DNA of 32,476 nucleotides from Deltaproteobacteria bacterium (GTDB lineage: Bacteria > Desulfobacterota > Desulfobaccia > Desulfobaccales > 0-14-0-80-60-11): NCBI GenBank assembly GCA_021817645.1, contig JAKAGH010000002.1:1-32476 (forward strand), written 5' to 3'. The position numbers were made by a program, and so were the translations under genes. Under the pieces are notes generated by a model. The model worked only from the letters and a program-made list of their open reading frames with translations, made no database searches and was not told where the DNA came from. Below, piece after piece: positions 4,324 to 24,249 of the stretch. Position 1 is the first letter of the stretch. Every line of letters begins with the position of its first letter.

Positions 4324-4914
4324 CTACTCCGTCTTATCCAAGGCGGAGATGCGCCATTGACCCGACTCCCTGGCAAAGGTGATCAAATAGGTCCTGGAAA
4401 TATGCAGCGGCTTCATGGTGCTGATGTTCTGGGCCTCAATTAGCCAGGTTACCCGAGCCACCGCCGTATTATCGTTCACAGAATTGATCTCCTGGATATC
4501 GAATTCCATTTTCGGGTAGTTGTAGATTTTCCAGGTTTTGGAGATACTTTGGGCGCGCTGGGTCAGTTGCGGAAAGTTCGGTGAATAATAACTCAAAAGT
4601 TCGGACAAATCCCTTTTCCGATTGGCCTCCCGGATGCCGGCCAGCACCTCTGCCAACTGGCTTTTTAAGGTGGGAGCCGGCGCGGGCGGGACTTTGGCGG
4701 CCGCGAGGGGGGCGGCAGCCGTGCCGGGAGCCGGCTGGGCCTGAACCGGAGGAGCCTCCGGCCCCTTCTCAGAGGCCGTAAAATAAGCCCTGCCGTGAAT
4801 CAAAAACCAGAGGAGGTAGCTGACGAGCACCAGGCCCAATCCCAGCCCCAAGCCGTGGAGCCAGGAATGCCCCAACCAGCGCTGCAGAAAAGCGGATTTA
4901 GGTTTATCAGTCAT
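4324..4914 (-). CDS. Membrane-anchored protein with a Pro/Ala-rich linker and a C-terminal NTF2/SnoaL-like domain (tentative)
   Basis: One TM helix (WLHGLGLGLGLVLVSYLLWFLI), a PAPGTAAAPLAAAKVPPAPAPT linker, and a roughly 110-aa alpha+beta tail. It lies 17 nt upstream of, and co-directional with, the SH3b gene. Confidence 0.6.
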   Translation of the reverse strand: MTDKPKSAFLQRWLGHSWLHGLGLGLGLVLVSYLLWFLIHGRAYFTASEKGPEAPPVQAQPAPGTAAAPLAAAKVPPAPAPTLKSQLAEVLAGIREANRKRDLSELLSYYSPNFPQLTQRAQSISKTWKIYNYPKMEFDIQEINSVNDNTAVARVTWLIEAQNISTMKPLHISRTYLITFARESGQWRISALDKTE

Positions 4915-5117
4915 TTTCTGCGCTCAGAGAACCCTTGGTGATATGATACCAAAATCTGCACCCCTAAGGAAGGCGCAAGCCATTCTCATCACCAGGAATT
5001 GCCGGATGGTGCCGCGGCTCCATCTATGATAAATAATTAGCCAATGGCATGGTCAATTTTTACTGCTCTAAAATCTAGTGCTGCTGGCTACCGGATTATG
5101 GACGGCGGGTTAAATTG

Positions 5118-9020: not shown

Positions 9021-9509
9021 ATGGGACCAGCAACCATTAATAAGGGCCGCGGCGCCTGGCTTTGCGCTTTAGGGCTGATTATTTGCCTGCTTGGCTGTCA
9101 GACGCAGGTTAGCAAAGTGCCACCATCGCCGCCGCCGCTGCCGCCAAGGCCGGCGCAACCCAAAGCAGCGCGCCCCACTTTTTATGTGACCGCCAATCAG
9201 CTTAGCTTGCGGGCCTGTCCCGGCCTGGATTGCAAAAAAATTACTGCCCTGAAATTAAATGCCGAAGTGGAAAAGATGGGGGAGATCCAAAATTGGACTC
9301 AGATTAAGGTAAAAAAGGATGGGACGATAGGTTATGTCAGCTCCCGCTATCTCTCCCCACACCCCGTGGACGCGGCACACCTTGCCAAAAAAAAACCCAA
9401 GAAAATAAAACCTCGCAAAGCTGCCCAGCCTCCTGAAGCGCCGGTGGAAGAGGGAAAGGTCCTGCCCGCGAATCAAGAGCCTGAGCCGCCAATCCCCCGG
9501 GTCATGTAG
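9021..9509 (+). CDS. SH3b-domain lipoprotein with a Pro-rich linker and a Lys-rich tail
   Basis: Lipobox LLGCQ, then PPSPPPLPPRPAQP, then an SH3b module (FYVTANQLSLRACPGLDC...WTQIKVKKDGTIGYVSSRYL) resembling repeat 2 of the protein at 3503-4306. Confidence 0.8.
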   Translation: MGPATINKGRGAWLCALGLIICLLGCQTQVSKVPPSPPPLPPRPAQPKAARPTFYVTANQLSLRACPGLDCKKITALKLNAEVEKMGEIQNWTQIKVKKDGTIGYVSSRYLSPHPVDAAHLAKKKPKKIKPRKAAQPPEAPVEEGKVLPANQEPEPPIPRVM

Positions 9510-9589
9510 GAGGAGGCAGGAGTCAAGGGCATAGATTTGCAGGACAAAATATCCCGCTCTTATTCAGAAGTTCCTGCGCCGCGCCGGGG

Positions 9590-10042
9590 TCATTTGCGGC
9601 CAGGAGGTGGCGGCGGAGGCGGCGGTCCAGCAGCTGGGCACATGCCCATGCCCATCCCGGGTCCGGGACCCATATCGAAATTGGGGGCGATCTTCTTGGC
9701 TTCCGACCGGGTGGCCGTCATCTTCTCCAGTATCTGGTCTCCCAGAGCATTCAACTCCTTCTGCTTGGCCTGGATGGCGTTTTGATCAGGCTTCTCCGCC
9801 TTCCCCAAGGCCTCCAGTTCCGCATTCTTGACCATCATCTGCCTGCGCAGACTGGCGGTGTCGGCATACATCTTTTCATTGAGGTCGAAAATCTTGCCTG
9901 CCTGCTCCGGGGTCAGATTCATCATCACGGGGCCGTGGCCCATGCCCTTCCCCATGGGCTGGGCCCAGACGGAGGCCACCAGACCCAGACTCAATGCCAG
10001 GGCCAAGACCAGCAGCAACGGTAATTTCCCTGATTTCTTCAA
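9590..10042 (-). CDS. Spy/CpxP/ZraP-family periplasmic protein (annotated in databases as periplasmic heavy metal sensor) with Met/Gly-rich ends and a Pro8 tail
   Basis: Signal peptide ending VWA, then LTPEQ...(LRRQMMVKNAELEAL...KPDQNAIQAKQKELNAL), the helical hairpin pattern typical of the LTxxQ family. MGKGMGHG and GPGPGMGMGM motifs are present and the C-terminus is PPPPPPPPGRK. TTG start with an AGGAG 10 nt upstream. Confidence 0.8.
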   Translation of the reverse strand: MKKSGKLPLLLVLALALSLGLVASVWAQPMGKGMGHGPVMMNLTPEQAGKIFDLNEKMYADTASLRRQMMVKNAELEALGKAEKPDQNAIQAKQKELNALGDQILEKMTATRSEAKKIAPNFDMGPGPGMGMGMCPAAGPPPPPPPPGRK

Positions 10043-10376: not shown

Positions 10377-11864
10377 CTAAGGCGCGCCGGTATGGCACTG
10401 GTTACACAGGATTTCCGGGGGGATTTCTCCTCCAGGATGGTCGAATTTCAACCCCTGCAGGCTCATGGTCTCCGGTTGCTGACCGCCCTGGGCGGTGATT
10501 ATATGACACGAGTTGCAGGCATTGGAGATGGCCCGGCCTGTCTCGTTGACATGGGAACCATCGTGGCAGCGAAAGCAACCCGGCCAAATATAATGCCCGA
10601 TATTGTTTGGCCGCACTTTCCAGTCCGTTTTCATTTCCGGGAAGAAATTGTCTCGAAAGATCCTCTGAGTCTCGGAGATCGCCTGCCCGATCTTTGGCTG
10701 GTCCTGGTAATCAGGGTACCCTTTCGAGAGTTTTTCAGCAATCAGGGCAATCCCAGGGGCCTGCGAAACAGCCCCGGCGGCCTTGACTAGAGCCTCGGCC
10801 GCCTTCGCTTTTATGGAAGGAATGGCAGGATCGATACGACCCAGCCACAAGGAAGCATCCAGAGCGGTATAGGGAGAATCGAAAATGTGGGTGGGACGAT
10901 TGTGGCAGTCGACACAGTCGAGCACCCGCACGGGCAGAGTTTTTTGTTGGGGGGTCAATGGATCGTTCTTTGACTGGTAGACGGTGACCGCGCCTGTCTG
11001 TCGATTCGTCACGCGCACCCAGGGGATGGTTTGCCGGCTCTCATCCGTGGCAATGTACTCCATGCGGTTGCCCACATTCATATGCCAGTGGATGCCTTCA
11101 ACCGGCCCCTTGGTGGGATCTGCCCCTCCCACCTTCACCAGCAATCTTATATTCCACGGAGTGTTTTGCTTGTCAGGCAGGAAGAATTGGCGGCGCAGTT
11201 CCACCCATCCAAAAAATTTCGCCGGCCAATGGCACTGTTCGCAGGTTTCCGGCGCGGGCCGCAGGTTTTGGACCGGCACTGGAATGGGCCGTGGATATGA
11301 GTTAGTAACGGTTGCATAGACCTGATAGAGGCCGGAGAGCTTGGAGCGGACAAACCAGGAAGCGCCCGGGCCGATATGGCATTCCGTGCATCGTACCCTG
11401 GCGTGGGGAGAGATTTTGTACGTGGTGTATTCCGGCTTCATCGGCGTGTGGCACAAAGCGCCGCAAAACTCCGACGATTCCGTCACCTGAAACGCGCGGT
11501 AGCTTCCTAACGAGGTGAGCAAAAGAAAAAGGGATGTGCAGGCAAGCGCCACGACAAGTTGGCGCGTGCGCCTCTCGCCACTTGCCTCATCGCGGGCCTC
11601 AGCCGCCGTTAGTTTTTTGCGCCGGCGGAGTTCCAGCCATGCTCCCACTCCCCCGAAAATGAGGCCAATCCAAACAAATGACGGGACAATCAGGTAGATC
11701 AGGATGCCCATGTAGGGCTGTCTGAAACCCTGAAACAGGTCAACTGCTATCAGAAAAAGCTCGACGAACAGGCAGCACACGGCCACCACAACGCCGAAGA
11801 TGCCAACCCAGTTGCCGACCAGGGCGGAAACCCATTGGGAACGCTTGGACTTAGGCCCTTTCAT
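10377..11864 (-). CDS. Membrane-anchored heptahaem c-type cytochrome, NapC/NirT family (ImcH-like architecture); putative quinol/quinone-pool oxidoreductase
   Basis: 2-3 N-terminal TM helices and seven CXXCH motifs: CGALCH, CTECH, CEQCH, CVDCH, CFRCH, CNSCH, CNQCH. The first two sit in a NapC/NirT-like module (CGALCHTPMKPEY..Y..SPHA...C.ECH). Confidence 0.88.
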   Translation of the reverse strand: MKGPKSKRSQWVSALVGNWVGIFGVVVAVCCLFVELFLIAVDLFQGFRQPYMGILIYLIVPSFVWIGLIFGGVGAWLELRRRKKLTAAEARDEASGERRTRQLVVALACTSLFLLLTSLGSYRAFQVTESSEFCGALCHTPMKPEYTTYKISPHARVRCTECHIGPGASWFVRSKLSGLYQVYATVTNSYPRPIPVPVQNLRPAPETCEQCHWPAKFFGWVELRRQFFLPDKQNTPWNIRLLVKVGGADPTKGPVEGIHWHMNVGNRMEYIATDESRQTIPWVRVTNRQTGAVTVYQSKNDPLTPQQKTLPVRVLDCVDCHNRPTHIFDSPYTALDASLWLGRIDPAIPSIKAKAAEALVKAAGAVSQAPGIALIAEKLSKGYPDYQDQPKIGQAISETQRIFRDNFFPEMKTDWKVRPNNIGHYIWPGCFRCHDGSHVNETGRAISNACNSCHIITAQGGQQPETMSLQGLKFDHPGGEIPPEILCNQCHTGAP

Positions 11865-11919
11865 GAACGAAGGGGTTCCAAATCGATGCTAAAAGAGTGG
11901 CTGCAGCCGGTCACAACCG

Positions 11920-12246
11920 TTAGTGTTTCGCAACTGACTTAAGATAAGCTATCACGTCCTGCAGTTCTGCATCGGTTAACTTGAATTCCGGCATTTTTAC
12001 TTTGGGATCGATGGCTTTCTTGGGGTTGGTGATCGCCTCCTTGAGGAAAGCGTCGGTCTTGCCCCCGGCAAGCATTTCAATGGGCTTGCCCAGGACGGGC
12101 TTGCCCGGTTCGGGCGCCTTGTGGCACAGGGCGCATTTTTTGCTATCTGCCAGGGCTTTTCCCTTTTCCGCAGAACCGCCTTGAGCCCATGCAAAAGCGG
12201 CAATTCCAATCGATGCCAAAAAAAAGACCATAACTTTAGATTTCAT
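11920..12246 (-). CDS. Periplasmic monohaem class-I cytochrome c (MtoD-like by size and position)
   Basis: 108 aa with signal peptide MKSKVMVFFLASIGIAAFAWA, a single CALCH, and a distal Met candidate (KVKMPEF). AGGAGG Shine-Dalgarno. Confidence 0.85.
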   Translation of the reverse strand: MKSKVMVFFLASIGIAAFAWAQGGSAEKGKALADSKKCALCHKAPEPGKPVLGKPIEMLAGGKTDAFLKEAITNPKKAIDPKVKMPEFKLTDAELQDVIAYLKSVAKH

Positions 12247-12390
12247 TTTTCCTCCTGTATTTGGGCCACGGCAATCATGAACGGAGAGCCCCCGCTGTTT
12301 CCAGTTTATCTGCGGTGCATGATAGAAACAAGCTTAAAACAATGCAGACGCGGTTGAAATCACTCTTGCCACTCACCCCTTCAGCCCAAA

Positions 12391-14433
12391 CTAAAACTTG
12401 TACTGTAAAAATGCCTGCACCACGTGCGCCGTGGCGTTCCTGTAGAACCCGTCCAGGGTATTAAACGCCTGACTGGCGCCCGGCGCGCCCGCCGCAGTGA
12501 TTCCCCGCGTGTAAAGCGTTTGGTACGCCTGGCTCATGAAGAAGGCCTCGTATATGTATCCCCCTCTGATAGCCCAGTGCTCGTTGTACTGATAGGTGAG
12601 AAATGTACGGATATCGGCAAAGGTTTCGTTCAGATTGGGCATGAACGAGTTGTGGAAATCCGATTTCGCAAAAGAGTAGCTGGCCCTGGTCGTGAGCTTC
12701 ACCTTTTTCGGAATGAGCTTAAAGTCCGCACTGGCGAAAAAAGTGTCATATGAATCGGAGGTGGTCAAAGTGGGGCCCGAATCACCCTGGATCCGAGCAA
12801 CTTCCCCATTAATTGCGCCATTGGGGGCCAGTTCTTTAACTTGGAGTTGCTGGTGGTCGTATCCCAGGCTCAACGCCACCCGGTCATGCGGCCTCCAGCT
12901 CACATCCACTCCGGTCGACCAGCCTCGATCGCTTTGGATACCAAGGGCCGAGTTGGTAAAATTGTCGTTATAGATCGAGAAATTACCGGAGCAGGTGACA
13001 GTATCCCAGGGATAAACTTCGGCAACGAAATTGGCGTTGTTCCGGTTGAGGCTGCCCGAGTAGAATTTGTAAGTCAGCGGCACCAGCACGGCCGTCGGAT
13101 CCCCCGTCTGCGTCACAAACGCCAGAGGATTACTCCCCGTCCTGGTGGTGAACGAATAGTTGGCCAGCAGGCTCAGCCAGTTAGTAGGAGACACCCTGAC
13201 GCCCGCCTGGGGCGTGTGACTCGAGGTATTGCCCTGTTCATTGCCGCGGGTGTCTCCTTTCCAGTTATAGCCGACAGTGACGGCCACCTTGTTGTTCACT
13301 CTATAATCAGCGCCGAGGTTGATGCCCTGCCGGAAATACGAATAGTGCTCAGCTGCCAGAAGGGTTGGGTTGTTTCCGAATGCCCTCAGCAAAACTTGAT
13401 TTTCTGAAGCTTTGTTATCATTCGAATAATTATAAGCCCTGTACGCATATCTCAAGGTTAACGGGGCGATTGGACGGGTTATGCCTGCAAGATCCGCGGC
13501 CAGAGTCGAAGCGCTGAGACCCGCAAGGCCGTCAAATCTGCCAGCCACGGTAGGAGGGGGCCCAGCACCAGTGGCACTCTCGAAGACATAGTCGTTCTGG
13601 GACAGCCAGCCGTAGGACAACGAACCGGTGATCCTGGTCTTGTAGGACTTCAGGTCCAGTGCCCCCTCACCGGTAACGTAGTTGGCCATATTGCTTCCGG
13701 GCAGGGAGTTAAAGGCGAGCGCCCCGACCGGCTGCTGCCTGGCCAAAACGTCTGCCTGCCCATTATCAAAGGTCGAAAGATGATAAGAGACGCGACCCTG
13801 AAAAATCGACCGCTTTTCAGTCGGCTGATCATATTCCGCGCCGACTCTCAGGTCGTTTTGCTTATAATTAATCGGTCTGAGAAAGGTGGTAAAATTATAG
13901 GGATTGCCAGGACCAGTAAGGTAGCTCCCTGCCTGCCAGCCGTTTCTTTTCAGGAATTGGTCCTCGGCGAACAGGGTGAAATTAAGTGTGGGCGAGTAGT
14001 AGCCGCTGAACCGCAGTCTCTGCAACACAATCCCAATACGGTTAGCAGTGGGATTCACCGTGCAGTAAAGGTTTTGGAGCTGGTCATACTCAATTTGGGC
14101 ATGATAGAGCCCGAGTTTGCCTATCTGGAGCAAGTAATCCTGATCTGCTAATCCCGGATGGCTCATCCGGAAATTATAATATTCGAGGCCGTCCTTGCTC
14201 TTCAGCCAGATATCGGTATCCGCGAGAAACCCTTCGGGGAAGGGAACATACTTTTTCAAATATGACCGGTCCATATGTCTGGGTTGATCGGAGACCCATC
14301 CTCCACCCAAGGCGATATAGCCGCCCAAGGTGTAATTGGTCCCCGCGTCCATGTCAGCGAAGCCACCCCCGCAGGTCAGAGTGATAAACATGACTGCGAG
14401 AAAAACGACCAGGATTTCTCTCTTAAGCTTCAT
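12391..14433 (-). CDS. Outer-membrane beta-barrel, MtrB/PioB family (decahaem-associated porin)
   Basis: About 680 aa with a signal peptide. Alternating-residue beta-strand composition is rich in Y/G/N/S/T, and the C-terminal barrel signature is ...VQAFLQYKF. It starts 10-13 nt after the decahaem gene stop. ATG 14433 is preferred over GTG 14436. Confidence 0.8.
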   Translation of the reverse strand: MKLKREILVVFLAVMFITLTCGGGFADMDAGTNYTLGGYIALGGGWVSDQPRHMDRSYLKKYVPFPEGFLADTDIWLKSKDGLEYYNFRMSHPGLADQDYLLQIGKLGLYHAQIEYDQLQNLYCTVNPTANRIGIVLQRLRFSGYYSPTLNFTLFAEDQFLKRNGWQAGSYLTGPGNPYNFTTFLRPINYKQNDLRVGAEYDQPTEKRSIFQGRVSYHLSTFDNGQADVLARQQPVGALAFNSLPGSNMANYVTGEGALDLKSYKTRITGSLSYGWLSQNDYVFESATGAGPPPTVAGRFDGLAGLSASTLAADLAGITRPIAPLTLRYAYRAYNYSNDNKASENQVLLRAFGNNPTLLAAEHYSYFRQGINLGADYRVNNKVAVTVGYNWKGDTRGNEQGNTSSHTPQAGVRVSPTNWLSLLANYSFTTRTGSNPLAFVTQTGDPTAVLVPLTYKFYSGSLNRNNANFVAEVYPWDTVTCSGNFSIYNDNFTNSALGIQSDRGWSTGVDVSWRPHDRVALSLGYDHQQLQVKELAPNGAINGEVARIQGDSGPTLTTSDSYDTFFASADFKLIPKKVKLTTRASYSFAKSDFHNSFMPNLNETFADIRTFLTYQYNEHWAIRGGYIYEAFFMSQAYQTLYTRGITAAGAPGASQAFNTLDGFYRNATAHVVQAFLQYKF

Positions 14434-14446
14434 CACCCCCCCCTTT

Positions 14447-15397
14447 TTATCTAAAGAATAAATTGCCCTGGATATTGTTGCTGCCGTGGATGTTCCGGTG
14501 ACAGTTGACGCACGCCGAGCCGGCCATCATATTTATCCTTCTCTTTTCCGCCCCCCCCGCCCCCGAGATCGTGAAATTGACGTTGTGGAAGGTAATATGG
14601 CAATCCCGGCACAACCTGATGGGAGGTTGTTTCAGCAGGGCGGGATAGGCGCTGCCGTGGGGCTGATGGCAATTGAAACAATCCTCCATGACGGGCGGAT
14701 GCTGAAAAATGAACGGACCTCGGTACTGGGCGTGACAATTGAAGCAAAGTTCTCTAGTGGAAATAGCTTTTACGAGCTTGGGGGAAGCAGTCCCGTGTGG
14801 GTTGTGGCAACTCGCGCAGTTCATTTTTCCCTCGCGCACGGGATGATGGGAAAATTTGTTCTCCGCACGAACTTGCTCTTTATGACAGGTATTGCACGTA
14901 TCCGCTACGGTTAAACGGGCGAGTTGAAAACGATTCGCTGCTCCCGGTCCCGTATGGACTACGTGGCACGATGTGCAAGCGACGCCGTTGGTGTCATGAA
15001 CACTGCCCGACCAGAAAAGCCTATTCCTCTTTTGATGGCACTTGAGACAGGCATCGTTTTGCATGGAAATCGGCGTGGGCGTCCCCTTCGTAAATCGAAC
15101 CATACCCGCGAATGATGTGCCTCCCGAACCAACATGCTCTGTTGCCGGTCCATGACATGTTTCACACCCAAGTTTTTCACCAGCAGTACGGGGGTGCTTC
15201 AAAAACAGGGTGCCCATAGCCGTCTTGGCGAGGATATCGTACACTTTTTGGTGACAGGCTTGGCAGGTTTCCGCGCCTGCATACCCTGCATTGGCCTTTT
15301 CGGCCTTTTTGTCCTCTGCCGGTGCTTTTGAGAAAGAAAGAAGAAAAACCAGGATTACAAAGACAAAAGTCAGTGCGGAAATGGAAATTTTGCGCAT
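14447..15397 (-). CDS. Periplasmic decahaem c-type cytochrome, MtrA/DmsE/PioA/MtoA family
   Basis: 316 aa with a signal peptide and ten CXXCH motifs: CQACH, CETCH, CLKCH, CTSCH, CNTCH, CASCH, CFNCH, CFNCH, CRDCH, CVNCH. Family-typical strings are HHPVREGKMNCASCHNPHG, RGPFIFQHPPVMEDCFNCHQPHGS and CVNCHRNIHGSN. Confidence 0.92.
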   Translation of the reverse strand: MRKISISALTFVFVILVFLLSFSKAPAEDKKAEKANAGYAGAETCQACHQKVYDILAKTAMGTLFLKHPRTAGEKLGCETCHGPATEHVGSGGTSFAGMVRFTKGTPTPISMQNDACLKCHQKRNRLFWSGSVHDTNGVACTSCHVVHTGPGAANRFQLARLTVADTCNTCHKEQVRAENKFSHHPVREGKMNCASCHNPHGTASPKLVKAISTRELCFNCHAQYRGPFIFQHPPVMEDCFNCHQPHGSAYPALLKQPPIRLCRDCHITFHNVNFTISGAGGAEKRRINMMAGSACVNCHRNIHGSNNIQGNLFFR

Positions 15398-15596: not shown

Positions 15597-15759
15597 TATT
15601 GGTGGTGCGGATGGACTTCCAGCGCCTGGAGGAAAGTCATAAAGGTGCCGGCAGTTTTCTATCAAAATGATATATATTATGTTTTTTTAATGTTTTTTTT
15701 ATAGTTAAAAATAATAGGAGAAGTCAAGGAAAAAATTAGGGAGTTAAGGATTTTTTCTA

Positions 15760-16075
15760 GCCCCTGTATCTGCCCTTGGGCCGGCTGCTCTGAGGGCGGC
15801 GGGCCCTGGCCCCGGCCCTCCTCATCCTCATCCCCCTTTTCAGCCTGTTGACCATCATTGCCAGCCAGGCTCTGGAATTTTCCCGCAGTGTGAGCCAGGG
15901 CCTGCAACCGGCCACGTCTGGCAATGACTGGCGGCCAATTTGGATGGGGTCAAGGGGTATCTTCACCACCTCAACTTGCCCTTGCCACCGGAGCAGATCA
16001 AGCTGGAGTCCATTGTCCGGACGGTGTTGACCCGGGCCAGCGTCTTCATCTACGCCTGCTATTCCAATACAATGA
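15760..16075 (+). pseudogene. Frameshifted fragment of a membrane permease gene (possibly AI-2E/PerM type)
   Basis: Two different frames read ...ALLILIPLFSLLTIIASQALEFSRSVSQGLQ... and ...YLHHLNLPLPPEQIKLESIVRTVLTRASVFIY.... There is no start or full-length frame. The family assignment is by remembered pattern only. Confidence 0.3.
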
Positions 16076-16198: not shown

Positions 16199-16216
16199 TA
16201 AGTATCTGCAATTACT

Positions 16217-16301
16217 TGGTGCCGGAGGCCGGACTCGAACCGGCACAAGGTTGCCCTCGGGGGATTTTGAGTCCATACCACCGAGCTTCACAACTCCTCA
16301 A
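16217..16301 (-). tRNA. tRNA-Leu(CAA)-like sequence in which only the 3' ~58 nt are canonical; probably a truncated or pseudo tRNA (att-type remnant)
   Basis: The minus strand reads ...GGACTCAAAATCCCCCGAGGGCAACCTTGTGCCGGTTCGAGTCCGGCCTCCGGCACCA (16274-16217). It has a perfect T-arm GCCGG-TTCGAGT-CCGGC, a long variable arm CGAGG-GCAA-CCTTG, an anticodon loop CTCAAAA and a terminal CCA. The 5' side (TGAGGAG...) pairs with the 3' acceptor strand CTCCGGC at only 4 of 7 positions, and the 5' anticodon stem (ATGGA against TCCCC) has 2 mismatches. Confidence 0.55.
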
Positions 16302-16644: not shown

Positions 16645-19600
16645 CTACGTCTGAGAATCCTGTGCGTCTTCTGCTCGGATCTGCCTGTAGACCTGCTCCA
16701 GGAGATGGCCGGTAACGGCCTTCTGGAAATCCTTCTCGTTCAAGAACTTAGCTGTGATCTCCTCATTTTGCTCCATACGGTCAATAAATAATCCTTCCAG
16801 GGCCTTACGGAAAACGTAACCGAAATTTTCCATGGTGTTGGCGCTAGCCGCCTGGCGCAAGTTCGTATCGGCCACTGCGTCCTCGCGGATCGAATCGAAG
16901 AAAAGCTGGTCCCCGGGCTTAAATTCCGTACCAAACCGGTCATTTAGAAGATCGATCAGCTTTGAAAGCTCAATCTCCTCGCCCCGGGCAATCCCGGTAC
17001 CCACGTCCGTCGGACCCGACACCGGCTCCTCTCTACCCGGTTCCAGGTTGATCGAGCCCTCGCTAATTTTTTGCAGCCGGTAGAATTTGAGCGCCACCTC
17101 ATCATCGAAGTTATAGACCGGCCCCTGGTCGCCCCGGGGCAGCTTGGTTAGCAGGAAACGAATGTAGGAATATAGCTTCTCCAGATCCGAATCCTGGAAG
17201 GGGATGATCTGCGAGAGGAAGGCATACAGGTTGCGGTAGGCCACCAGCGTCTTGCGGAACTCCTCCCGGACCTCTTCCTCCAGATCGCGATAGCGGTTTA
17301 CCGCCGGGTCAATGCAGGCATTCATCCGGGCATGGTCTGCCGCGGTCTGATGGCGTTTGGGCTTGTAGAAAATCTTGCAGAACTCCGCCACCTCCGCTTT
17401 ATAGTAGACCTGCACCGCTTCCAGCTTCGCCTGCAGTTCATAAAGCTGTTTTGGGTCGGCCCGCTCACCGATGAGCGTCTGTTCGTAATAGGGCTGGAAC
17501 GCCGCCAAAATTTCTTCCGCCTCATTCACGAAGTCGAGGACAAAAGTATCCTCCTTGCCAGCATGAGTGCGGTTAAGACGCGACAGCGTTTGCACCGCCT
17601 GAATGCCCGCCAGGCGCTTATCCACATACATCGTCTGCAAGAGCGGCTGGTCGAAGCCGGTCTGGTACTTCTCGGCTACCAGCAGCACCTGGTATTGGTC
17701 CGTCCCGAACCGCTCGGGCAGCTCCTTCTCCCGAATACCCCCATTCATGCTGACTTCGGTATATTCCACGCTTGGAGCGTCGGGATCTACCACGGTACCG
17801 GAGAAGGCCACCAGAGTCTTGATGCCCTTATAGCCTTTCTCGGCGATGTATTTGTCAAAAGCTTGTTTGTAGCGGACAGCATGAAGGCGGCTGGAGGCCG
17901 TCACCATGGCCTTGGCCTTGCCGCCGATCTTGTGCATGGTGAAGTGGCGGAAGTGCTCCACCATGACTTCTGTCTTCTGGGCGATGTTATACGGATGCAG
18001 GCTCATGAATCGCGCCAGGGCCCGGCCGGCCTTGCGCTTGTCCACCTTGGGATCGTCTTCGATGTATTTGATCAGCCGATAGTACGTCTTGTACGTCGTG
18101 TAGTTCTGAAGCACGTCGAGGATGAAGCCTTCTTCGATGGCCTGCCGCATGCTGTAGAGATGGAAAGGCTCGGGTTTACCGTCAGCTCCCGGACGGCCGA
18201 AGACCTCCAGCGTCTTGTATTTCGGTGTGGCCGTGAAGGCGAAAAAGCCGATGTTGGGCTGCCGCCCGCGCTTGGCCATGGTCTTGAGGATTTCTTCCTC
18301 ATAGGTGGGCAGGCTCTCTTCCGTGGCGTACTTCGTCGCTTCTTCGCGAATGATGGCGGCGGCCAGGACGCCTTTGAGTTCCGTCGCCGTCTCACCGCCC
18401 TGGGAACTGTGGGCTTCATCGACAATGACCGCGTAACGGCGCTGGGGCAGGCTCCCGATCTTTTCCGTCACAAAGGGGAACTTTTGGAGCGTGGTCACGA
18501 CAATGGGCACGCCCCTGGCCAGGGCCTCCGCCAACTGCGTGGCGTTCACGTCGATTTTGTGCACCACGCCCTGCTTATGCTCAAACTGGTAAATAGTGTT
18601 CTGCAACTGCTGATCCAGGACCACCCGGTCGGTCACGACAATGACCGAGTCATAGACCTTCTCGTCCTTTTCGTCGTAGAGGCTGGCGAGTCGGTGCGCC
18701 AGCCAGGCGATGGAGTTCGATTTACCGCTCCCGGCCGAATGCTGGACCAGATAATTGGTCCCGGTGCCGCGCTCCCGGGCGTCGGCCACCAGTTTGCGCA
18801 CGCAATCAAGCTGGTGATAACGCGGGAAGATCATGGTCTCGCGCCGGACCTTCTTGCCGCCGAGCTTCTTTTCCTCGACCTGCAAGTGCATGAAGCGCGC
18901 CAGGATATCGAGGAAACTATGCCGCTCCAGGACTCCTTCCCAAAGGTAGGCGGTCTTGTAGCCCCCGGGGTTGTCGGGATTACCGGCGCCGGTGCCGCGT
19001 CCCCGGTTGAAGGGCAGGAAATGCGTGTTCCGGCCCGACAGGCGCGTGGTCATGTACACCTCATCCGTATCCACGGCGAAATGGACCAGGGCCCTCTTCT
19101 TGAACTGGAAGATCAGGTCCGCGGGATCGCGGTCATTTTTGTACTGGGTCACCGCGTGCCGCCAGGTCTGGGCGGTCATGGGGTTCTTGAGCTCCCCCGT
19201 GGCCAACGGCATGCCGTTCAAACTCAGGACCACGTCCAAGGTATTGCCGTGCCGGCTGGAATAACGCAGCTGGCGCGTGATGGTGAGACGGTTGGCGGCA
19301 TAGAGCCTTTGCGTCTCGGGGTTGGGGTGGCTGGCCGGGGCGAAGTAGGCGGCTCGGAATAGCTTACCGAAGCACTTGAACCCATGGCGTAGCACGGACA
19401 AACATCCCTCATGGGGGGAATTAAGAGCCCGGCAGAGGTCGTCCAGCAGCGTCTCTCCCGCTCTGTCCTTCTGGAGGTTCTGCAGGTATTCCCATTCCTT
19501 GGGTTGGGTCTCCCTGACAAAGGCCAGGAAGACTTCCGGGTCAAGACAGCGTTCCGAGTCGAAGGCTGCGCGGTCGCCTTTTTCGTACCCGCCCGCTCCC

Positions 19601-19656
19601 ACCAGGTGCTGTTCGATGGCGGTTTCAAAGGCCTTTTCGGTGTGCTGCCCCGGCAT
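16645..19656 (-). CDS. hsdR: Type I restriction endonuclease subunit R
   Basis: 1003 aa. The N-terminus MPGQHTEKAFETAIEQHL is typical of HsdR. A PD-(D/E)xK-type nuclease motif is present (LDVVLSLNGMPLATGELKN), with Walker A HSAGSGKSNS and DEAH box VIVDEAHSSQ. A helicase C-terminal domain follows. Confidence 0.95.
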   Translation of the reverse strand: MPGQHTEKAFETAIEQHLVGAGGYEKGDRAAFDSERCLDPEVFLAFVRETQPKEWEYLQNLQKDRAGETLLDDLCRALNSPHEGCLSVLRHGFKCFGKLFRAAYFAPASHPNPETQRLYAANRLTITRQLRYSSRHGNTLDVVLSLNGMPLATGELKNPMTAQTWRHAVTQYKNDRDPADLIFQFKKRALVHFAVDTDEVYMTTRLSGRNTHFLPFNRGRGTGAGNPDNPGGYKTAYLWEGVLERHSFLDILARFMHLQVEEKKLGGKKVRRETMIFPRYHQLDCVRKLVADARERGTGTNYLVQHSAGSGKSNSIAWLAHRLASLYDEKDEKVYDSVIVVTDRVVLDQQLQNTIYQFEHKQGVVHKIDVNATQLAEALARGVPIVVTTLQKFPFVTEKIGSLPQRRYAVIVDEAHSSQGGETATELKGVLAAAIIREEATKYATEESLPTYEEEILKTMAKRGRQPNIGFFAFTATPKYKTLEVFGRPGADGKPEPFHLYSMRQAIEEGFILDVLQNYTTYKTYYRLIKYIEDDPKVDKRKAGRALARFMSLHPYNIAQKTEVMVEHFRHFTMHKIGGKAKAMVTASSRLHAVRYKQAFDKYIAEKGYKGIKTLVAFSGTVVDPDAPSVEYTEVSMNGGIREKELPERFGTDQYQVLLVAEKYQTGFDQPLLQTMYVDKRLAGIQAVQTLSRLNRTHAGKEDTFVLDFVNEAEEILAAFQPYYEQTLIGERADPKQLYELQAKLEAVQVYYKAEVAEFCKIFYKPKRHQTAADHARMNACIDPAVNRYRDLEEEVREEFRKTLVAYRNLYAFLSQIIPFQDSDLEKLYSYIRFLLTKLPRGDQGPVYNFDDEVALKFYRLQKISEGSINLEPGREEPVSGPTDVGTGIARGEEIELSKLIDLLNDRFGTEFKPGDQLFFDSIREDAVADTNLRQAASANTMENFGYVFRKALEGLFIDRMEQNEEITAKFLNEKDFQKAVTGHLLEQVYRQIRAEDAQDSQT

Positions 19657-19715
19657 TGGGTGAAACCTCTCCAGTTACCTCGCACTACGTATACTCGGGT
19701 TTTGCCTCAAGACCA

Positions 19716-19797
19716 TTTGTCACAAAATACTTTGTGTCAAGCAATTAATTTATTACTTTACACAACATCTTTTGTCGTGTTTTCGCTTTACACAACC
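19716..19797 (-). promoter_or_regulatory. AT-rich fic-hsdR spacer with an inverted repeat and direct repeats; probable independent hsdR promoter/operator
   Basis: On the minus strand, TTGACACAAA-GTAT-TTTGTGACAA (19740-19717) is an imperfect 10-bp inverted repeat that contains a TTGACA hexamer. The direct repeat ctttacacaac occurs at 19756-19766 and 19786-19796, 30 bp apart. Confidence 0.35.
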
Positions 19798-20900
19798 AGG
19801 CGTCCCTCCACCAGGTTGATAAGTTCCGGAAATCCCAGCATAGCCGAGCGGCGTCCTTTTGCAGGCTGCATGACCTTAAGGATCCCGGCCTCTATCAGCT
19901 GGCGCACCAGTGCGGCGGCCGTCTGCTTGGTGGGGACGCCGGAAATGGTTGGGAAATCGGCTCCCCGGAAGATCGGCCGGGAAAAAATGGCGTCCAGGGC
20001 CTGAATGGCAAATTGGGAATGGGTGATCTCCACGATCCGGCTTTTCATGTTTTCGTACAGACGCAGCATGCCCCGTACCCGGTCGCTGTTAACTGCAGCC
20101 TGCTCGACCACCGCGGTCAGAAAAAACTGAATCCAGCCGTTCCAGTCATGCTTTTGGGTAATGGCTCTGAGACGTGCGAAATAAATTTCCCAGTGGGCCT
20201 CGAGATAGGCGCTGAGGTAAAACACCGGACTGGACAACAATTTTTTATCGAACAGGAAAAGGGGCACCAGCATCCGGCCCAATCTGCCATTACCGTCCAG
20301 GAAGGGATGGATGATTTCAAATTGAGCCTTGATCACCGCCAGTTGCACCAGCCCGTCCTTCTCCTGGAAATGCAGATATTTTTCCCAGTTGTCCAAGGCC
20401 TGGAGGAGCCGGTCCGGCGCCGGGGGCACAAAAGTGGCACGCTCGATGGGAGATCCTGGGGGGGCGATATAATTCTGGATGCGGCGAAACTGGCCCGGCG
20501 ACTTGTTCCGGCCGCGCACGCTGTCCAGCAGGATGGCGTGCAATTCCTGGATCAGGTTCAGGCAGAGGGGGCGCTTTTCCAGGCTCTCCACCGCCTGGCC
20601 CATGGCCCGCCGGTAATTGATGATTTCCTGAATATCGGCATATTTCGAGGGCTCCACCTCTTCCCGGGGGTCGGCTTCGTATTCCAGCACTTCCTCCATG
20701 CTGGCCTGGGTTCCTTCGATTCTGGAGGACAGCACCGCTTCCTGGGTGGTGAGGGGCGAAAGGAATAACCGCGGGTTGACGATACCCTGGAGCATACCAT
20801 CATATCTGGCCAGCGCCGCGTTGGCCTGGCCGATCAGGGAAACGTGCGCCGCCCAATCTATCGAGTCCAGGGGTAAGCTATCGGGTATATAGGGTTCCAT
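19788..20900 (-). CDS. Fic-family protein (Fido domain, putative AMPylase), class II auto-inhibited type with a C-terminal winged-helix-like tail
   Basis: The catalytic motif HPFLDGNGRLGRML fits HxFx(D/E)GNGRxxR. An N-terminal SSRIEG fits the inhibitory (S/T)xxxE(G/N) motif. The start ATG shares one base with the hsdS stop (TGATG). Confidence 0.9.
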   Translation of the reverse strand: MEPYIPDSLPLDSIDWAAHVSLIGQANAALARYDGMLQGIVNPRLFLSPLTTQEAVLSSRIEGTQASMEEVLEYEADPREEVEPSKYADIQEIINYRRAMGQAVESLEKRPLCLNLIQELHAILLDSVRGRNKSPGQFRRIQNYIAPPGSPIERATFVPPAPDRLLQALDNWEKYLHFQEKDGLVQLAVIKAQFEIIHPFLDGNGRLGRMLVPLFLFDKKLLSSPVFYLSAYLEAHWEIYFARLRAITQKHDWNGWIQFFLTAVVEQAAVNSDRVRGMLRLYENMKSRIVEITHSQFAIQALDAIFSRPIFRGADFPTISGVPTKQTAAALVRQLIEAGILKVMQPAKGRRSAMLGFPELINLVEGRLVV

Positions 20901-22240
20901 CAGGCCGCTGCCTCCCGGACGTCGATCTTACCTGTCACCGCCGCCGAGATGAGGGCCGTGCGGTGTTCTTTGAGCTTTTCTATACTTTTGGTGATGCTCT
21001 TCTCCAGCTTCTCCATGGTTTCTGTTTCTCGCTCCAAAAAAGCCATGATCTTATCTTGTTCATCGCGAGGGGGTAGAGGCACTTCGAGACTCTTAATCTT
21101 ATCCTGATCTATTGTTGCCATCGTTACCAAATTTGCGAGTGAAATGAAACGATTGATTGCGTAGGTAGAGTTGAGGAAGTGAATTAAGAACTTTGGGCTT
21201 ATCTTAGGTTGGATTGGTCGGCCCCTGACGACATGGCATTCAAAAACGGTTGGCTCCTCGATTTCCAACGCACACACCGAACGTCCCACACCTTCGAGCT
21301 TTAGCGATGAACGAACAAAAAAAATGTCCCCGGACCTAACAGCGTACTTGCTCTGTTCGACCTTGTCTGCTTCCACCCGATCAAGGCTGGTGTGGTCTAT
21401 AAGAAAATTCCTGCGATAAACATCGAACACGTTGACTAATTTAATCCCAGATCCAAAAAACTCCTTCTTTTTAAAAAGGCCATTAATTAATCCCCCCTCA
21501 ACCAAATACTTTAGCTTCTTTATCTCCCAATTGGCCGGGATTTGTCCAAGCCACTCCACGCCGGAGTCCTTCAGTGGGGCACTGGGGTCCAGACCCTTGG
21601 TGACGGCGTGGCTGATGAGGGCGGCGCGCTTCTCTTGTAACAGCTCGATCTGCCGCTGCTTTTTCTCCATCAGGGCGTCAATCCGCGCTGTCTCCCGGTC
21701 CAGAAAGGCGGTGATGGCGCTCTGCTCGGAATCTGTTGGAAGAGCTATTTTTAGGTCGCCAATCTCACTTGCGTTGACCGCCGGGTAACTCACACCCACT
21801 GAACGTGCAACTACTGCCTCAACAAAGTAGGGTGCACGCAAAGCATAAGCGACAAAATGACTATTCACACCTTTTATAGGCCTTACCACGGCAAACCCCG
21901 TAGAAACGATAAGGTTTTCCTCAGGATTATGGATCGGGGCTATGGCTCGAAGATAGGTACGGACAGTGGAAATAATAACATCCCCGTCCCGAACACGACG
22001 GCGTGCGCGGGAAGGAGCTTCCTCGAAGCGCATAATCTCTTTCTTCTTAATACCTTCAGAGGCATCAACACTACTGATATCGACATATTGAATTTCATAG
22101 TCGGGGTCAGTACCCTCCGATAGAACTTCATCATTTAAGGAGGAGGTGTACTTGAGGCGTATGATGTGCCAGTTTTCCGGTACCTCCCCCAGCCACTCGA
22201 CGCCGGACGGCTTATATTGGTGATAATGCCGCCACCTCAC
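20900..22240 (-). CDS. hsdS: Type I R-M specificity subunit S (two target-recognition domains)
   Basis: N-terminus YKPSGVEWLGEVPENW. There are two conserved coiled-coil spacers (RETARIDALMEKKQRQIELLQEKRAALISHAVTKGLD and RETETMEKLEKSITKSIEKLKEHRTALISAAVTGKIDV) and an internal repeat GVEWLGQIPANWEIKKLKY. The GTG start overlaps the hsdM stop (GTGA). The TRD regions are AT-rich (about 40% GC in a line I counted). Confidence 0.9.
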   Translation of the reverse strand: MRWRHYHQYKPSGVEWLGEVPENWHIIRLKYTSSLNDEVLSEGTDPDYEIQYVDISSVDASEGIKKKEIMRFEEAPSRARRRVRDGDVIISTVRTYLRAIAPIHNPEENLIVSTGFAVVRPIKGVNSHFVAYALRAPYFVEAVVARSVGVSYPAVNASEIGDLKIALPTDSEQSAITAFLDRETARIDALMEKKQRQIELLQEKRAALISHAVTKGLDPSAPLKDSGVEWLGQIPANWEIKKLKYLVEGGLINGLFKKKEFFGSGIKLVNVFDVYRRNFLIDHTSLDRVEADKVEQSKYAVRSGDIFFVRSSLKLEGVGRSVCALEIEEPTVFECHVVRGRPIQPKISPKFLIHFLNSTYAINRFISLANLVTMATIDQDKIKSLEVPLPPRDEQDKIMAFLERETETMEKLEKSITKSIEKLKEHRTALISAAVTGKIDVREAAA

Positions 22241-24249
22241 GCCGTCACCTCCGCCAGCATCGCGGCGATGTCCTGTTCGATCTGCTTGAGGTCCGCCTCA
22301 ATCTCCGCCAAGGGGCGGGGCGGGGTGTATTGGTAGAAGTAGCGGTTAAAATTGATCTCGTAGCCCACCCTGGTCTTGGACTCGTCCACCCAGGCGTCAG
22401 GCACGTGGGGCAAGACCTCCCGCCGCAGATATTCAATCACGTCCTCTTTGAGCGGCACGTTTTCGAAATCCCGCAGCTCGGGGTCGGGCTCCGGGTGGCC
22501 TTTGGCGTCGATGCAGACGTCCGCGGTCTCGTCCCGCTCAGACAGCGCCGCAAGGATCGCCTTGAACAAAGGGGCCGGGACCGCTACCCCGGCCTTCCGG
22601 AAGGCCGCCTTCACCATGGAGGCGAACTTCTCCCGATTTTTTACATCCCCATGAATGACCAAGTTATTGAGGGCGGAGACCATAGTCTTCTGGAGTTTAA
22701 TCCCTTCGGCAATTTCGGCCTGGGCCGCCTTGGAGTCCACCCGCTTTTTGCTGGTGGCAAGTCTCTGGAAGGCCGGGGTCTGTTCCAGCCGCGCCAGGCG
22801 CTCCGGAGTCACGGCGAAGTTGAGCTTCAAAGGGCGTTCCACGGTGAGCCGTCTATAGCCGAAGTCCCGGTTGTCAAAGAGGCAGACGTACAGGTTGTCT
22901 TTTAGTGCGCCATAGTGACGGGTGATCTCCCCGCATTGATCCTCGCAGACCTCGTGGCGCTTGTTGCCCAGGCTCTTGCGCATCTTCTTGAAAAAACTCG
23001 TGCCGTCCACCAATTGAATCTTGCCCCGGCGGCCCCGCGCCTTGCGGTTGGTGACGATCCAGAGGTAGGTGTAGATGCCGGTGTTGTAGAACAGCTGGTC
23101 CGGCAGCGCCACGATGGCCTCCAGCCAGTCGTTTTCGATGATCCAGCGCCGGATTTCGCTCTCACCGGAGCCCGCGGCGCCGGTGAACAGGGGCGAGCCG
23201 TTGAAGACGATCCCCAGGCGGGTGCCGCCCTCTTTCGGGTCCTTCATCTTACTGATCATGTGCTGGAGAAAAAGCAGCGAACCATCGTTGATGCGGGGCA
23301 GCCCGGCGCCGAAACGGCCGCCAAAGCCCTGCTCCTCGTGCTCCCGGCGGATGGTCTGCTCCTGGGGCTTCCACTCAACCCCGAAAGGCGGATTGGCCAG
23401 CATGTAATCAAACTTTTTCCCGGGGAAGTGGTCGTCGGTGAAGCTGTCGCCGAAGGCGATGTGTTCGATCTCCTGGCCCTTGATCATCATGTCCGAGCCG
23501 CAGATGGCGTAGGCCTGGGCGTTGTAGTCCTGGCCGAAAACCTCCAGACAAGCATCGGGGTTGAGCTTGCGCAGATACTCTTCGGCCACCGACAACATCC
23601 CGCCCGTACCGCAGGCCGGATCGTACAGCGTCTTGACGATGCCCTTGGTGGTCAGCACCTCGCTGTCCGGCAGGAACAGGAGGTTCACCATCAGGCGGAT
23701 GACCTCCCGGGGGGTAAAATGGTCACCCGCCTCCTCGTTGGAGGCCTCATTAAACCGCCGGATCAGCTCCTCGAAGATGTAGCCCATCTCGATATTGGGC
23801 ACCGTGTCGGGGTGCAGGTCGATCTCGGCGAACTTCGAGACCACGAGGTAGAGGCGGTCGGCCTTGTCGAGCTTGCCGATATGCTCCTCAAAGCCGAAAT
23901 GTTCGATGATCTCCCGGGCACGGGTGGAGAAGCCCTTGACGTATTGGGTAAGGTTTTCGGCGATATGGTTGGGGTCGCCCTTGAGCTTCTCGAAGGTGAA
24001 GCGGCTGGTATTGTAGAAGCCTACTCCGGCTACCCGGCACAGGAGCGGTTCCAGGTCCTTGATTTTGCCGCCCTGACGGCGCTTGAGTTCGGCAAGCACC
24101 AGGTCCTTGGTGGGCTCCAGCACGCAATCGAGCCGGCGCAGGACGGTCAGGGGGAGCATGACGTCCTTATATTGGTTGGGGCGGTAAGGCCCACGCAGCA
24201 GGTCAGCCACCGACCAAATGAAGCTGACTTTGTCGCTGAAATTATTCAT
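22237..24249 (-). CDS. hsdM: Type I R-M N6-adenine DNA methyltransferase subunit M
   Basis: 670 aa. HsdM N-terminal domain (FIWSVADLLRGPYRPNQYKDVMLPLTVLRRLD), SAM motif YDPACGTGGML, and catalytic motif LANPPFGVEW. Confidence 0.95.
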   Translation of the reverse strand: MNNFSDKVSFIWSVADLLRGPYRPNQYKDVMLPLTVLRRLDCVLEPTKDLVLAELKRRQGGKIKDLEPLLCRVAGVGFYNTSRFTFEKLKGDPNHIAENLTQYVKGFSTRAREIIEHFGFEEHIGKLDKADRLYLVVSKFAEIDLHPDTVPNIEMGYIFEELIRRFNEASNEEAGDHFTPREVIRLMVNLLFLPDSEVLTTKGIVKTLYDPACGTGGMLSVAEEYLRKLNPDACLEVFGQDYNAQAYAICGSDMMIKGQEIEHIAFGDSFTDDHFPGKKFDYMLANPPFGVEWKPQEQTIRREHEEQGFGGRFGAGLPRINDGSLLFLQHMISKMKDPKEGGTRLGIVFNGSPLFTGAAGSGESEIRRWIIENDWLEAIVALPDQLFYNTGIYTYLWIVTNRKARGRRGKIQLVDGTSFFKKMRKSLGNKRHEVCEDQCGEITRHYGALKDNLYVCLFDNRDFGYRRLTVERPLKLNFAVTPERLARLEQTPAFQRLATSKKRVDSKAAQAEIAEGIKLQKTMVSALNNLVIHGDVKNREKFASMVKAAFRKAGVAVPAPLFKAILAALSERDETADVCIDAKGHPEPDPELRDFENVPLKEDVIEYLRREVLPHVPDAWVDESKTRVGYEINFNRYFYQYTPPRPLAEIEADLKQIEQDIAAMLAEVTA

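Follow-up and report, generated by a model that had tools for sequence, protein, structure and literature searches.

A SoFic-family fic gene in the hsdS-hsdR interval of a type I restriction-modification operon

On contig JAKAGH010000002.1 (assembly GCA_021817645.1), from a deltaproteobacterium of the Desulfobaccales, a fic gene lies between hsdS and hsdR of a type I restriction-modification (R-M) operon. The stretch analysed, called the window below, is 32,476 nucleotides (nt) long and comprises positions 1 to 32,476 of the contig. The best explanation of the locus is a mobile four-gene cassette, hsdM-hsdS-fic-hsdR, in which a Fic protein of the SoFic family serves as an autonomous abortive-infection layer, linked to the R-M enzyme genetically and not by an obligate latency like that of PrrC. 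This explanation is held with moderate confidence. Matters of observation here are the anatomy of the genes, the family membership of Fic, the conservation of the cassette, and the turnover of its cargo.

SoFic has been described as a stand-alone anti-phage gene (Millman et al. 2022, 10.1101/2022.05.11.491447). It acts as a toxin, and EcSofic of E. coli H397 is accompanied by a small downstream antitoxin, AS1 (PMC12249575). SoFic is a class II, cis-inhibited AMPylase that is toxic when de-inhibited.

For the window Fic, we infer the anti-phage activity, the target, and the trigger as follows. The cassette is horizontally mobile, with fic as cargo between hsdS and hsdR. Fic is very probably translated off the hsdMS message by way of a stop/start overlap and its own Shine-Dalgarno sequence, and so is co-expressed and co-transferred with the R-M enzyme. 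The protein would be silenced by its own inhibitory glutamate, E62. Infection would relieve this inhibition, and Fic would then AMPylate an essential host protein and stop growth; the target is suggested by that of SoFic, which is elongation factor Tu (EF-Tu). The coupling to R-M would thus consist of shared transcription, shared mobility, and layered defence, with no obligate protein-protein latency.

Operon anatomy and the Fic protein

Open reading frames (ORFs) were taken from a six-frame list, and overlaps and motifs were read directly in the DNA; coordinates are collected in Table 1. Between hsdM and hsdS there is an overlap of 4 nt (GTGA). The hsdS stop and the fic start have one base in common, the A of the hsdS TGA being the A of the fic ATG (junction ...GCCTGATGGAA...), and a Shine-Dalgarno sequence, GGGAGG, lies 10 nt 5' of that ATG. 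The spacer that follows fic has a G+C content of 38.9%, against 55.8% in the whole window, and GGAGAGG stands 8-9 nt ahead of the hsdR ATG. From the overlap and the Shine-Dalgarno sequence, Fic is very probably made from the hsdMS message. The AT-rich spacer may hold the hsdR promoter; a promoter scan found no sigma-70 consensus in the spacer or upstream of hsdM, and terminator-like sites were no commoner than in shuffled sequence. When evidence of co-transcription was sought in sequencing runs, the stretch matched DNA metagenome runs (mine drainage, sediment) and no RNA runs.

All three R-M subunits are intact and lie in one operon with fic. HsdM has the Pfam domains HsdM_N (6.4e-27) and N6_Mtase (4.6e-54) and matches the PADLOC model MTase_I (PDLC03029) over its full length (1.7e-293). 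HsdS contains two Methylase_S stretches in Pfam, corresponding to two target-recognition domains, and matches PADLOC Specificity_I (4.2e-121). HsdR combines HSDR_N and the superfamily 2 helicase domains SWI2_SNF2 and ResIII with a T1R_D3-like domain, and matches TIGR00348 (3.2e-56). The operon is therefore a member of the type I R-M systems.

The sole domains detected in Fic are Pfam Fic_N (8.8e-28) and Fic (1.1e-17). The Fic core motif HxFx(D/E)GNGRxxR is present as HPFLDGNGRLGR at residues 198-209, and the translated gene contains both the catalytic string IIHPFLDGNGRLGRML / HPFLDGNGRLGRML and the inhibitory string SSRIEG. The latter fits the class II motif (S/T)xxxE(G/N) as S58-S-R-I-E62-G63, lies in the same chain within Fic_N, and aligns with the inhibitory SSEIEN of SoFic in a HMMER alignment. 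Key residues of both segments, H198-R209 and S58-G63, are invariant in 18 homologues of 61-100% identity.

Family membership is indicated by several comparisons. The PADLOC model SoFic (PDLC03963) matches with 5.2e-111, residues 2-365 falling on profile positions 7-359 of 361. In a sequence search of the PDB, residues 25-350 align to S. oneidensis SoFic and to chain 9VJC at ~1e-42 to 1e-39. The latter is a 358-residue 'protein adenylyltransferase', which we take to be EcSofic. An AlphaFold model of Fic (pLDDT 74, pTM 0.78) has its best PDB fold matches in the SoFic structures 3ZCN and 3EQX, over the full length at TM 0.77; the CccR structure 7XUX is also among the matches. At residues 298-356 the model predicts the helix-strand order H-E-H-H-E-E of a winged helix (H298-307, E310-312, H313-320, H325-337, E341-343, E353-356).

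Other results set the protein apart from SoFic proper. Pfam SoFic-like_C (PF21248), which true SoFic orthologues match, has no match in the window Fic at E<=0.001. The NCBIfam equivalog model NF046030 gives 181.9 bits against a cut-off of 550, identity to the experimentally tested SoFic proteins is ~28-35%, and in a maximum-likelihood Fic tree the SoFic pair occupies a long separate branch. Because the score falls below the cut-off and the branch is long and separate, the window Fic is placed in a sister subfamily and not taken as the equivalog of S. oneidensis SoFic. Judged by sequence and model, it is a full-length SoFic-family member, a class II cis-inhibited AMPylase with a predicted winged-helix C-terminus.

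An earlier, sequence-only reading of this DNA had proposed much of this anatomy. Its order, strands, and coordinates for hsdM, hsdS, fic, and hsdR all agree with the ORF list and the sequence; the GTGA and TGATG overlaps and the AT-rich spacer of 131 nt are present in the DNA; and its claim that Fic comes from the hsdMS message very probably holds. The full catalytic motif and the SSRIEG motif it named were likewise found, and the Pfam families and winged-helix-like C-terminus that it expected were borne out by the profile matches and by the predicted topology and fold.

Conservation, cargo turnover, and linkage

The closest relatives of the window Fic are metagenome orthologues (loci are given by our own labels): L081 with 94% identity, L082 with 89%, and L083-85 with 86%. 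All of them keep the order hsdM-hsdS-fic-hsdR and the same 1-nt overlap of hsdS and fic. Their flanks are unrelated, and include MacB/RND genes, a TIR gene with a bestrophin-like gene, and a Toprim primase with HTH_17. In the L081-L083 cassettes, HsdM is 87-93% and HsdR 89-97% identical to the window proteins. HsdS is just 34-36% identical, which fits a swap of target-recognition domains. The synonymous divergence (dS) of fic and hsdR is alike, at 0.22 and 0.22 to L081 and 0.81 and 0.97 to L083. Since the relatives keep the cassette in unrelated flanks and fic and hsdR have diverged equally, the four genes are inherited and moved as a unit. The ratio of nonsynonymous to synonymous divergence in fic is 0.10-0.14, indicating purifying selection.

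One of these relatives, L082, has its hsdM split into two ORFs of 332 and 340 amino acids (aa) at 4644-6661; this copy may be inactivated, and its fic and hsdR are intact. A 106-aa ORF between the L082 fic and hsdR was considered as an HsdR relic and rejected, as its resemblance to HsdR and to the L089 ORF described next is unconvincing and it has no Pfam match.

Orthologues of 68-76% identity look stand-alone at first. In L089/L090, the ORF right after the intact fic (9213-9518) corresponds to HsdR residues 1-84 of the window HsdR family, with 66% identity. In L093/L094, the ORF in the same place (9286-9975) corresponds to HsdR residues 773-997, with 73% identity. Neither ORF matches a Pfam family. 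Because these HsdR relics sit after an intact fic, the fic-hsdR junction is old, and intact fic outlives the decay of the restriction enzyme. L093 also adjoins a Wadjet-like jetB/jetC cluster, a RhuM gene, and a second Fic gene.

The reverse case can be found in L130 (G089:C17), whose source genome belongs to the same taxonomic family and whose HsdM is 90% identical to that of the window. Here the order is hsdM-hsdS-PDDEXK_3-orf115-hsdR: fic has been replaced by a PDDEXK_3 gene of 139 aa and an ORF of 115 aa, and about 20 nt of the fic 3' coding end remain together with the repeat-bearing spacer. L173 and L205 are metagenome copies of the same state with the same ~20-nt remnant. Read from these sequences, the fic 3' remnant is a direct scar of cargo replacement. 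The repeat array of the spacer, considered as a recombination site for cargo exchange, was rejected in that role: the L130 junction lies within the fic 3' coding end and not at the array.

The wider HsdM family was surveyed in 401 genomes of the phylum, 56 of which were positive; 20 loci were fetched and about 18 could be interpreted. Most of these carry other genes between hsdM, hsdS, and hsdR. The alternative cargo includes RhuM, Abi_2, a DUF1016/YhcG nuclease, an AAA ATPase with a subtilase, an IrrE-type M78 protein with DUF4411, an AAA_15/21 ATPase, PDDEXK_3, Bro-N, DUF6398, and a MORC-like ATPase with a C5 methylase. Two of the sampled loci, L132 and L148, again carry Fic. On this sequence evidence, the hsdS-hsdR interval is one of the exchangeable cargo slots of this type I R-M operon family.

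Exchangeable defence genes have been described within type I R-M, BREX, and DISARM loci under the name 'guilt-by-embedding' (Payne et al. 2024, 10.1101/2024.01.29.577857), and RhuM- or Fic/Doc-like toxin genes are frequent in R-M operons that contain PrrC or RloC (Anantharaman et al. 2013, PMC3710099). The SoFic prototype is itself found in such a place: a protein 99% identical to SoFic in a Shewanella assembly (L095) is encoded within hsdR(EcoEI_R_C)-SoFic-hsdM-hsdS-AAA_15/21 ATPase. A Methylomicrobium orthologue is stand-alone. Because the prototype, too, is embedded in a type I R-M locus, the window locus joins the already described pattern of defence genes embedded in R-M operons. The cassette layout is real; the embedding pattern itself was already known.

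The frequency of such linkage was estimated from 80 species-representative loci with orthologues of 37-64% identity, drawn from many bacterial phyla and methanogens. Linkage was called from genome-wide Methylase_S matches, positions of the fic copies, our own HsdM/S/R profiles, and tblastn. Type I R-M genes were found within ~7 kb of fic in about 9-10 of the 80 loci (~12%), a lower bound because many contigs are short; the remaining ~88% are not adjacent. The linked loci include L009 (hsdS-fic-hsdR), L011 and L013 (hsdM-fic-hsdS), and L049 (hsdM-hsdS-X-fic-hsdR), as well as L015, L021, L039, L041, and L059. L067 was counted as uncertain, its S subunit having been recognised by our own iterative HsdS hidden Markov model and not confirmed by Pfam. 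For an hsdS match within 7 kb, chance predicts at most 0.66 of the 80 loci, and at least 6 were observed with Pfam alone (Poisson p about 7e-5). The linkage of Fic to type I R-M is beyond chance.

On the maximum-likelihood tree, embedded copies require at least 7 state changes and cluster no more than shuffled labels do. The neighbours of some orthologues are a GmrSD-type gene, overlapping by 4 nt, a PglZ (BREX) gene, or N6_N4 methylases, and many orthologues adjoin housekeeping genes.

The repeat array and competing explanations

The spacer between fic and hsdR contains an array of a 10-bp motif. On the operon strand, the first copy, m1 (TTGTGTAAAG, 19795-19786), overlaps the fic stop codon, and the second, m2 (TTGTGTAAAG, 19765-19756), follows 30 nt on from it. 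An inverted copy, CTTGACACAA (19741-19732), which contains TTGACA, lies 14 nt past m2, and a degenerate direct copy, TTGTGACAAA (19725-19716), lies 6 nt past the inverted one. The layout can be written as m(+)-N14-m(-)-N6-m(+), with the motifs TTGTGTAAAG / CTTTACACAA. At one mismatch or less, just three matches exist in the 32-kb window, all of them in this array. The motifs are kept in L081-L085, L089, and L001, and the sequence between them varies. The conserved array between fic and hsdR is a new detail of the locus.

In other Fic subclades, the same motif and layout occur directly upstream of fic. A scan of metagenomes for the inverted repeat yielded 80 loci: 29 have the repeat 8-27 nt upstream of fic and 3 just downstream, so that 29 of the 32 fic-adjacent matches are upstream. 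About half of the matches have no adjacent fic and no common neighbour, and these may be chance occurrences in AT-rich DNA or orphan relics. The array is thus 3' of fic in the clade of the window and upstream of fic in most lineages. At the Shewanella SoFic locus (L095, 7850-8000), a 264-nt upstream region holds at least 7 copies of ATGTCGAT/ATCGACAT in both orientations.

CccR recognises an inverted repeat of 10 bp within the promoter of its own gene (PMC9755527), and SoFic, which AMPylates EF-Tu, binds its own promoter as a dimer (2026 preprint, 10.64898/2026.07.09.737422). Because the array is linked to fic in several subclades, CccR binds such repeats, and SoFic binds its own promoter, the site of its ATGTCGAT/ATCGACAT array, the array of the window is very probably the operator of the winged helix of this Fic subfamily, as judged by analogy. 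The arrangement TTGTGTAAAG-N14-CTTTACACAA is a concrete candidate operator for the winged helix of a large Fic subfamily.

This prediction leads to the strongest alternative to an autonomous defence layer, namely that Fic regulates the R-M system. The operator array would have been relocated from the fic promoter to the 3' side of fic, ahead of a restriction gene, and Fic would control hsdR through its winged helix on the TTGTGTAAAG array as a C-protein does, or else its Fic domain would modify an Hsd subunit; in both versions Fic would tune restriction besides being a toxin. If the first is true, the AMPylating toxin would be a transcriptional controller of restriction and a functional analogue of type II C-proteins, so that the amount of the nuclease subunit would follow the amount, or the DNA-bound state, of an abortive-infection effector. 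The predicted winged helix, the binding of inverted 10-bp repeats or own promoters by the dimeric homologues CccR and SoFic, and the recurrence of motif and layout upstream of fic at the 29 metagenome loci and in other subclades all agree with DNA binding. In the clade of the window the array stands directly ahead of hsdR or, in L167, of a ResIII helicase gene, and its inverted copy overlaps a TTGACA box.

The fuller comparison is less favourable to regulation of restriction. That the array always precedes a restriction gene is ruled out by G333/L270, L001, and L153, where housekeeping or convergent genes come after the same fic-plus-array module; on this showing the array resembles a part of the fic module and not an hsdR control region. 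It also remains in L130-type cassettes after the loss of fic, the promoter scan called no sigma-70 consensus in the spacer, and binding of Fic to the array is itself a prediction. Control of hsdR by Fic through the 3' array, like the regulatory explanation as a whole, is considered improbable.

A guard mechanism of the PrrC type, as put forward in the sequence-only reading, is somewhat less probable still. The HsdM/S(/R) complex would bind and silence Fic, a phage anti-restriction protein would free it, and AMPylation would kill the cell. The gene order is indeed that of hsdM-hsdS-prrC-hsdR, so that fic occupies the PrrC position of the prr topology as that reading had said, and translational coupling to hsdS would favour co-assembly. 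Embedding between hsdS and hsdR is seen in the window, L081-L085, and L009. Enrichment beside type I R-M is strong, embedding has occurred repeatedly and independently in several type I families, the SoFic prototype included, and Fic/Doc and RhuM proteins have been proposed as parts of a multilevel R-M-linked defence (Anantharaman et al. 2013, PMC3710099).

Against this, Fic carries its inhibitor within its own chain (SSRIEG). Payne et al. 2024 (10.1101/2024.01.29.577857) describe PrrC as 'almost exclusively' embedded in type I R-M, whereas ~88% of the Fic orthologues have no R-M linkage and no R-M-specific subclade appears in the tree. Intact fic genes under purifying selection stand beside decayed hsdR, the cargo of the hsdS-hsdR slot is freely exchanged, and SoFic is reported to be active as a single gene in E. 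coli. Release of a latent Fic from the R-M complex by anti-restriction proteins is therefore disfavoured.

The earlier reading would have given up its guard if orthologues showed no enriched linkage to hsdS and hsdR. Enrichment is in fact strong, but linkage at ~12% of 80 loci is far below the near-obligate linkage of PrrC. Its broader suggestion of a latent toxin or abortive-infection effector survives in part: the SoFic family is an abortive-infection defence, and it is the guarding of R-M that is disfavoured. Its statement that no guard mechanism had been shown for Fic agrees with the literature searched, in which no demonstration or test of such a role was found.

Least probable, and very much so, is an addiction module in which Fic, as a toxin-antitoxin-like element and not an anti-phage effector, would stabilise the mobile R-M cassette through post-segregational killing: the Fic/Doc proteins count among the classical toxins, EcSofic has AS1, the cassette is mobile, and an att-like tRNA fragment lies nearby, but no AS1-like or VbhA-like antitoxin ORF of at least 20 aa exists on the operon strand of the 131-nt spacer, the upstream side of fic directly abuts hsdS, and the inhibitory helix is in cis, so that there would be no labile antitoxin to lose. 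To our knowledge, type I R-M cassettes need no such help.

Several points also weigh against the preferred explanation, an autonomous abortive-infection layer. The anti-phage role given to the window Fic derives wholly from comparison within its family, and with ~28-35% identity and 181.9 bits against an equivalog cut-off of 550, its target and phage spectrum could differ. A functionally integrated system would equally be expected to show the tight stop/start overlap and to have inherited fic together with hsdR for so long (relics, at 68-72% identity, included). Enrichment beside type I R-M is about 10-fold or more, and at least three or four unrelated type I families contain Fic, in differing positions; together these may be more than hitch-hiking. 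Finally, a predicted Fic operator in front of hsdR hints at some regulatory cross-talk.

On its two sides, the cassette in the window is flanked by an mtoA/mtoB/cymA-like extracellular electron-transfer cluster and a czc/cus-type RND efflux operon. The former (10377-15397) encodes a decahaem cytochrome, an MtrB/PioB porin, a monohaem cytochrome c, and a NapC/NirT-like cytochrome. Such clusters are typical of iron-oxidising Betaproteobacteria, and its presence fits the mine-drainage metagenome from which the DNA came. No further defence genes were seen among the window ORFs scanned.

A fragment of tRNA-Leu(CAA) lies ~370 nt past the hsdR stop. It comprises the anticodon arm, a long variable arm, the T arm, and the CCA end (reverse complement ...GGACTCAAAATCC...GGTTCGAGTCCGGCCTCCGGCACCA); ARAGORN called no complete tRNA in the window. 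Many contigs from genomes within the genus match the stretch at 97-100%. From its sequence, the fragment is probably an att scar of the integrative element that brought the cassette and may mark one end of that element, and such a truncated, att-like tRNA-Leu is consistent with arrival on an integrative element. An Rfam search of the region past hsdR gave nothing meaningful. When same-genus genomes were compared in search of an empty site, the left and right flanks matched different contigs, synteny was not kept, and no insertion borders could be defined. A further stretch of ~250 nt (15805-16056) matches, at ~70-72%, one contig in most genomes of the genus and a second contig (C389) of the genome of the window itself; it partly overlaps a 76-aa ORF (15677-15907) with no Pfam matches.

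Table 1. Features of the hsdM-hsdS-fic-hsdR locus in the window, with repeat arrays of related loci.
Feature	Position	Strand	Description	Basis
hsdM	22237..24249	(-)	type I methyltransferase subunit, 670 aa	Pfam, PADLOC
hsdS	20900..22240	(-)	specificity subunit, 446 aa, GTG start	Pfam, PADLOC
fic	19788..20900	(-)	class II SoFic-family Fic AMPylase, predicted C-terminal winged helix, 370 aa	Pfam, PADLOC, PDB, fold
fic-hsdR spacer	19657..19787	(-)	131 nt, AT-rich	
hsdR	16645..19656	(-)	restriction/translocase subunit, 1003 aa	Pfam, TIGR00348
10-bp motif array TTGTGTAAAG	19716..19795	(-)	predicted operator of Fic winged helix	
truncated tRNA-Leu(CAA), 3' part	16214..16275	(-)	probable att-like scar	sequence read, relatives' matches
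TTGTGTAAAG / CTTTACACAA arrays	L001 9106-9185; L089 9106-9199; L029 7932-7995; L043 7768-7960		same layout	

Comparison with known systems

The nearest counterparts of the window Fic are SoFic (SO_4266 of S. oneidensis) and EcSofic, which it resembles in its full-length profile and fold matches. SoFic is alike, too, in the R-M locus of its prototype and in the repeat array beside its gene. The proteins differ in sequence, with ~28-35% identity, a score below the NCBIfam cut-off, and no Pfam SoFic-like_C match in the window Fic. The loci differ as well. In Shewanella, an EcoEI_R_C-type system has the gene between its hsdR and hsdM, with the array upstream of the gene, whereas the window gene lies between hsdS and hsdR, has no upstream intergenic region, and has its array on the 3' side. 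EcSofic is followed by AS1, and the window locus has no AS1-like gene. The SoFic papers searched do not mention restriction or an R-M context, so the position of the prototype within a type I R-M locus is a context absent from that literature.

CccR of Yersinia pseudotuberculosis is a class II Fic protein with a helix-turn-helix domain that represses its own gene. It has a related fold, and its operator, like the array described here, consists of 10-bp inverted repeats with a wide spacer. CccR differs in being an effector secreted by a type VI secretion system that targets FtsZ, and in having its operator in its own promoter; the array in the window is downstream of fic, and its role as an operator is predicted.

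The prr locus of E. coli, with PrrC in EcoprrI, has the identical gene order and likewise a toxin-type gene in the hsdS-hsdR slot. The two proteins share no homology, PrrC consisting of an ABC ATPase and a HEPN anticodon nuclease and the window protein being a Fic AMPylase. PrrC is almost exclusively embedded and is kept latent by the R-M complex, whereas the window Fic belongs to a mostly stand-alone family and, by its sequence, carries its own inhibitor.

Like the guilt-by-embedding loci of Payne et al. 2024 and Anantharaman et al. 2013, the window contains a restriction operon with exchangeable defence cargo. The parts of these two papers that were searched contain no analysis of SoFic-type Fic proteins (the text of the former has 0 mentions of Fic). 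The practical value of the locus is modest: it offers a defined four-gene cassette for asking whether an embedded Fic is independent, synergistic, or a guard. As a case of a type I R-M operon carrying interchangeable second-line defence genes it is well documented. Here, turnover is recorded at one slot with both scars and relics, and this single slot displays a conserved cassette, R-M relics beside surviving cargo, and a cargo scar beside surviving R-M.

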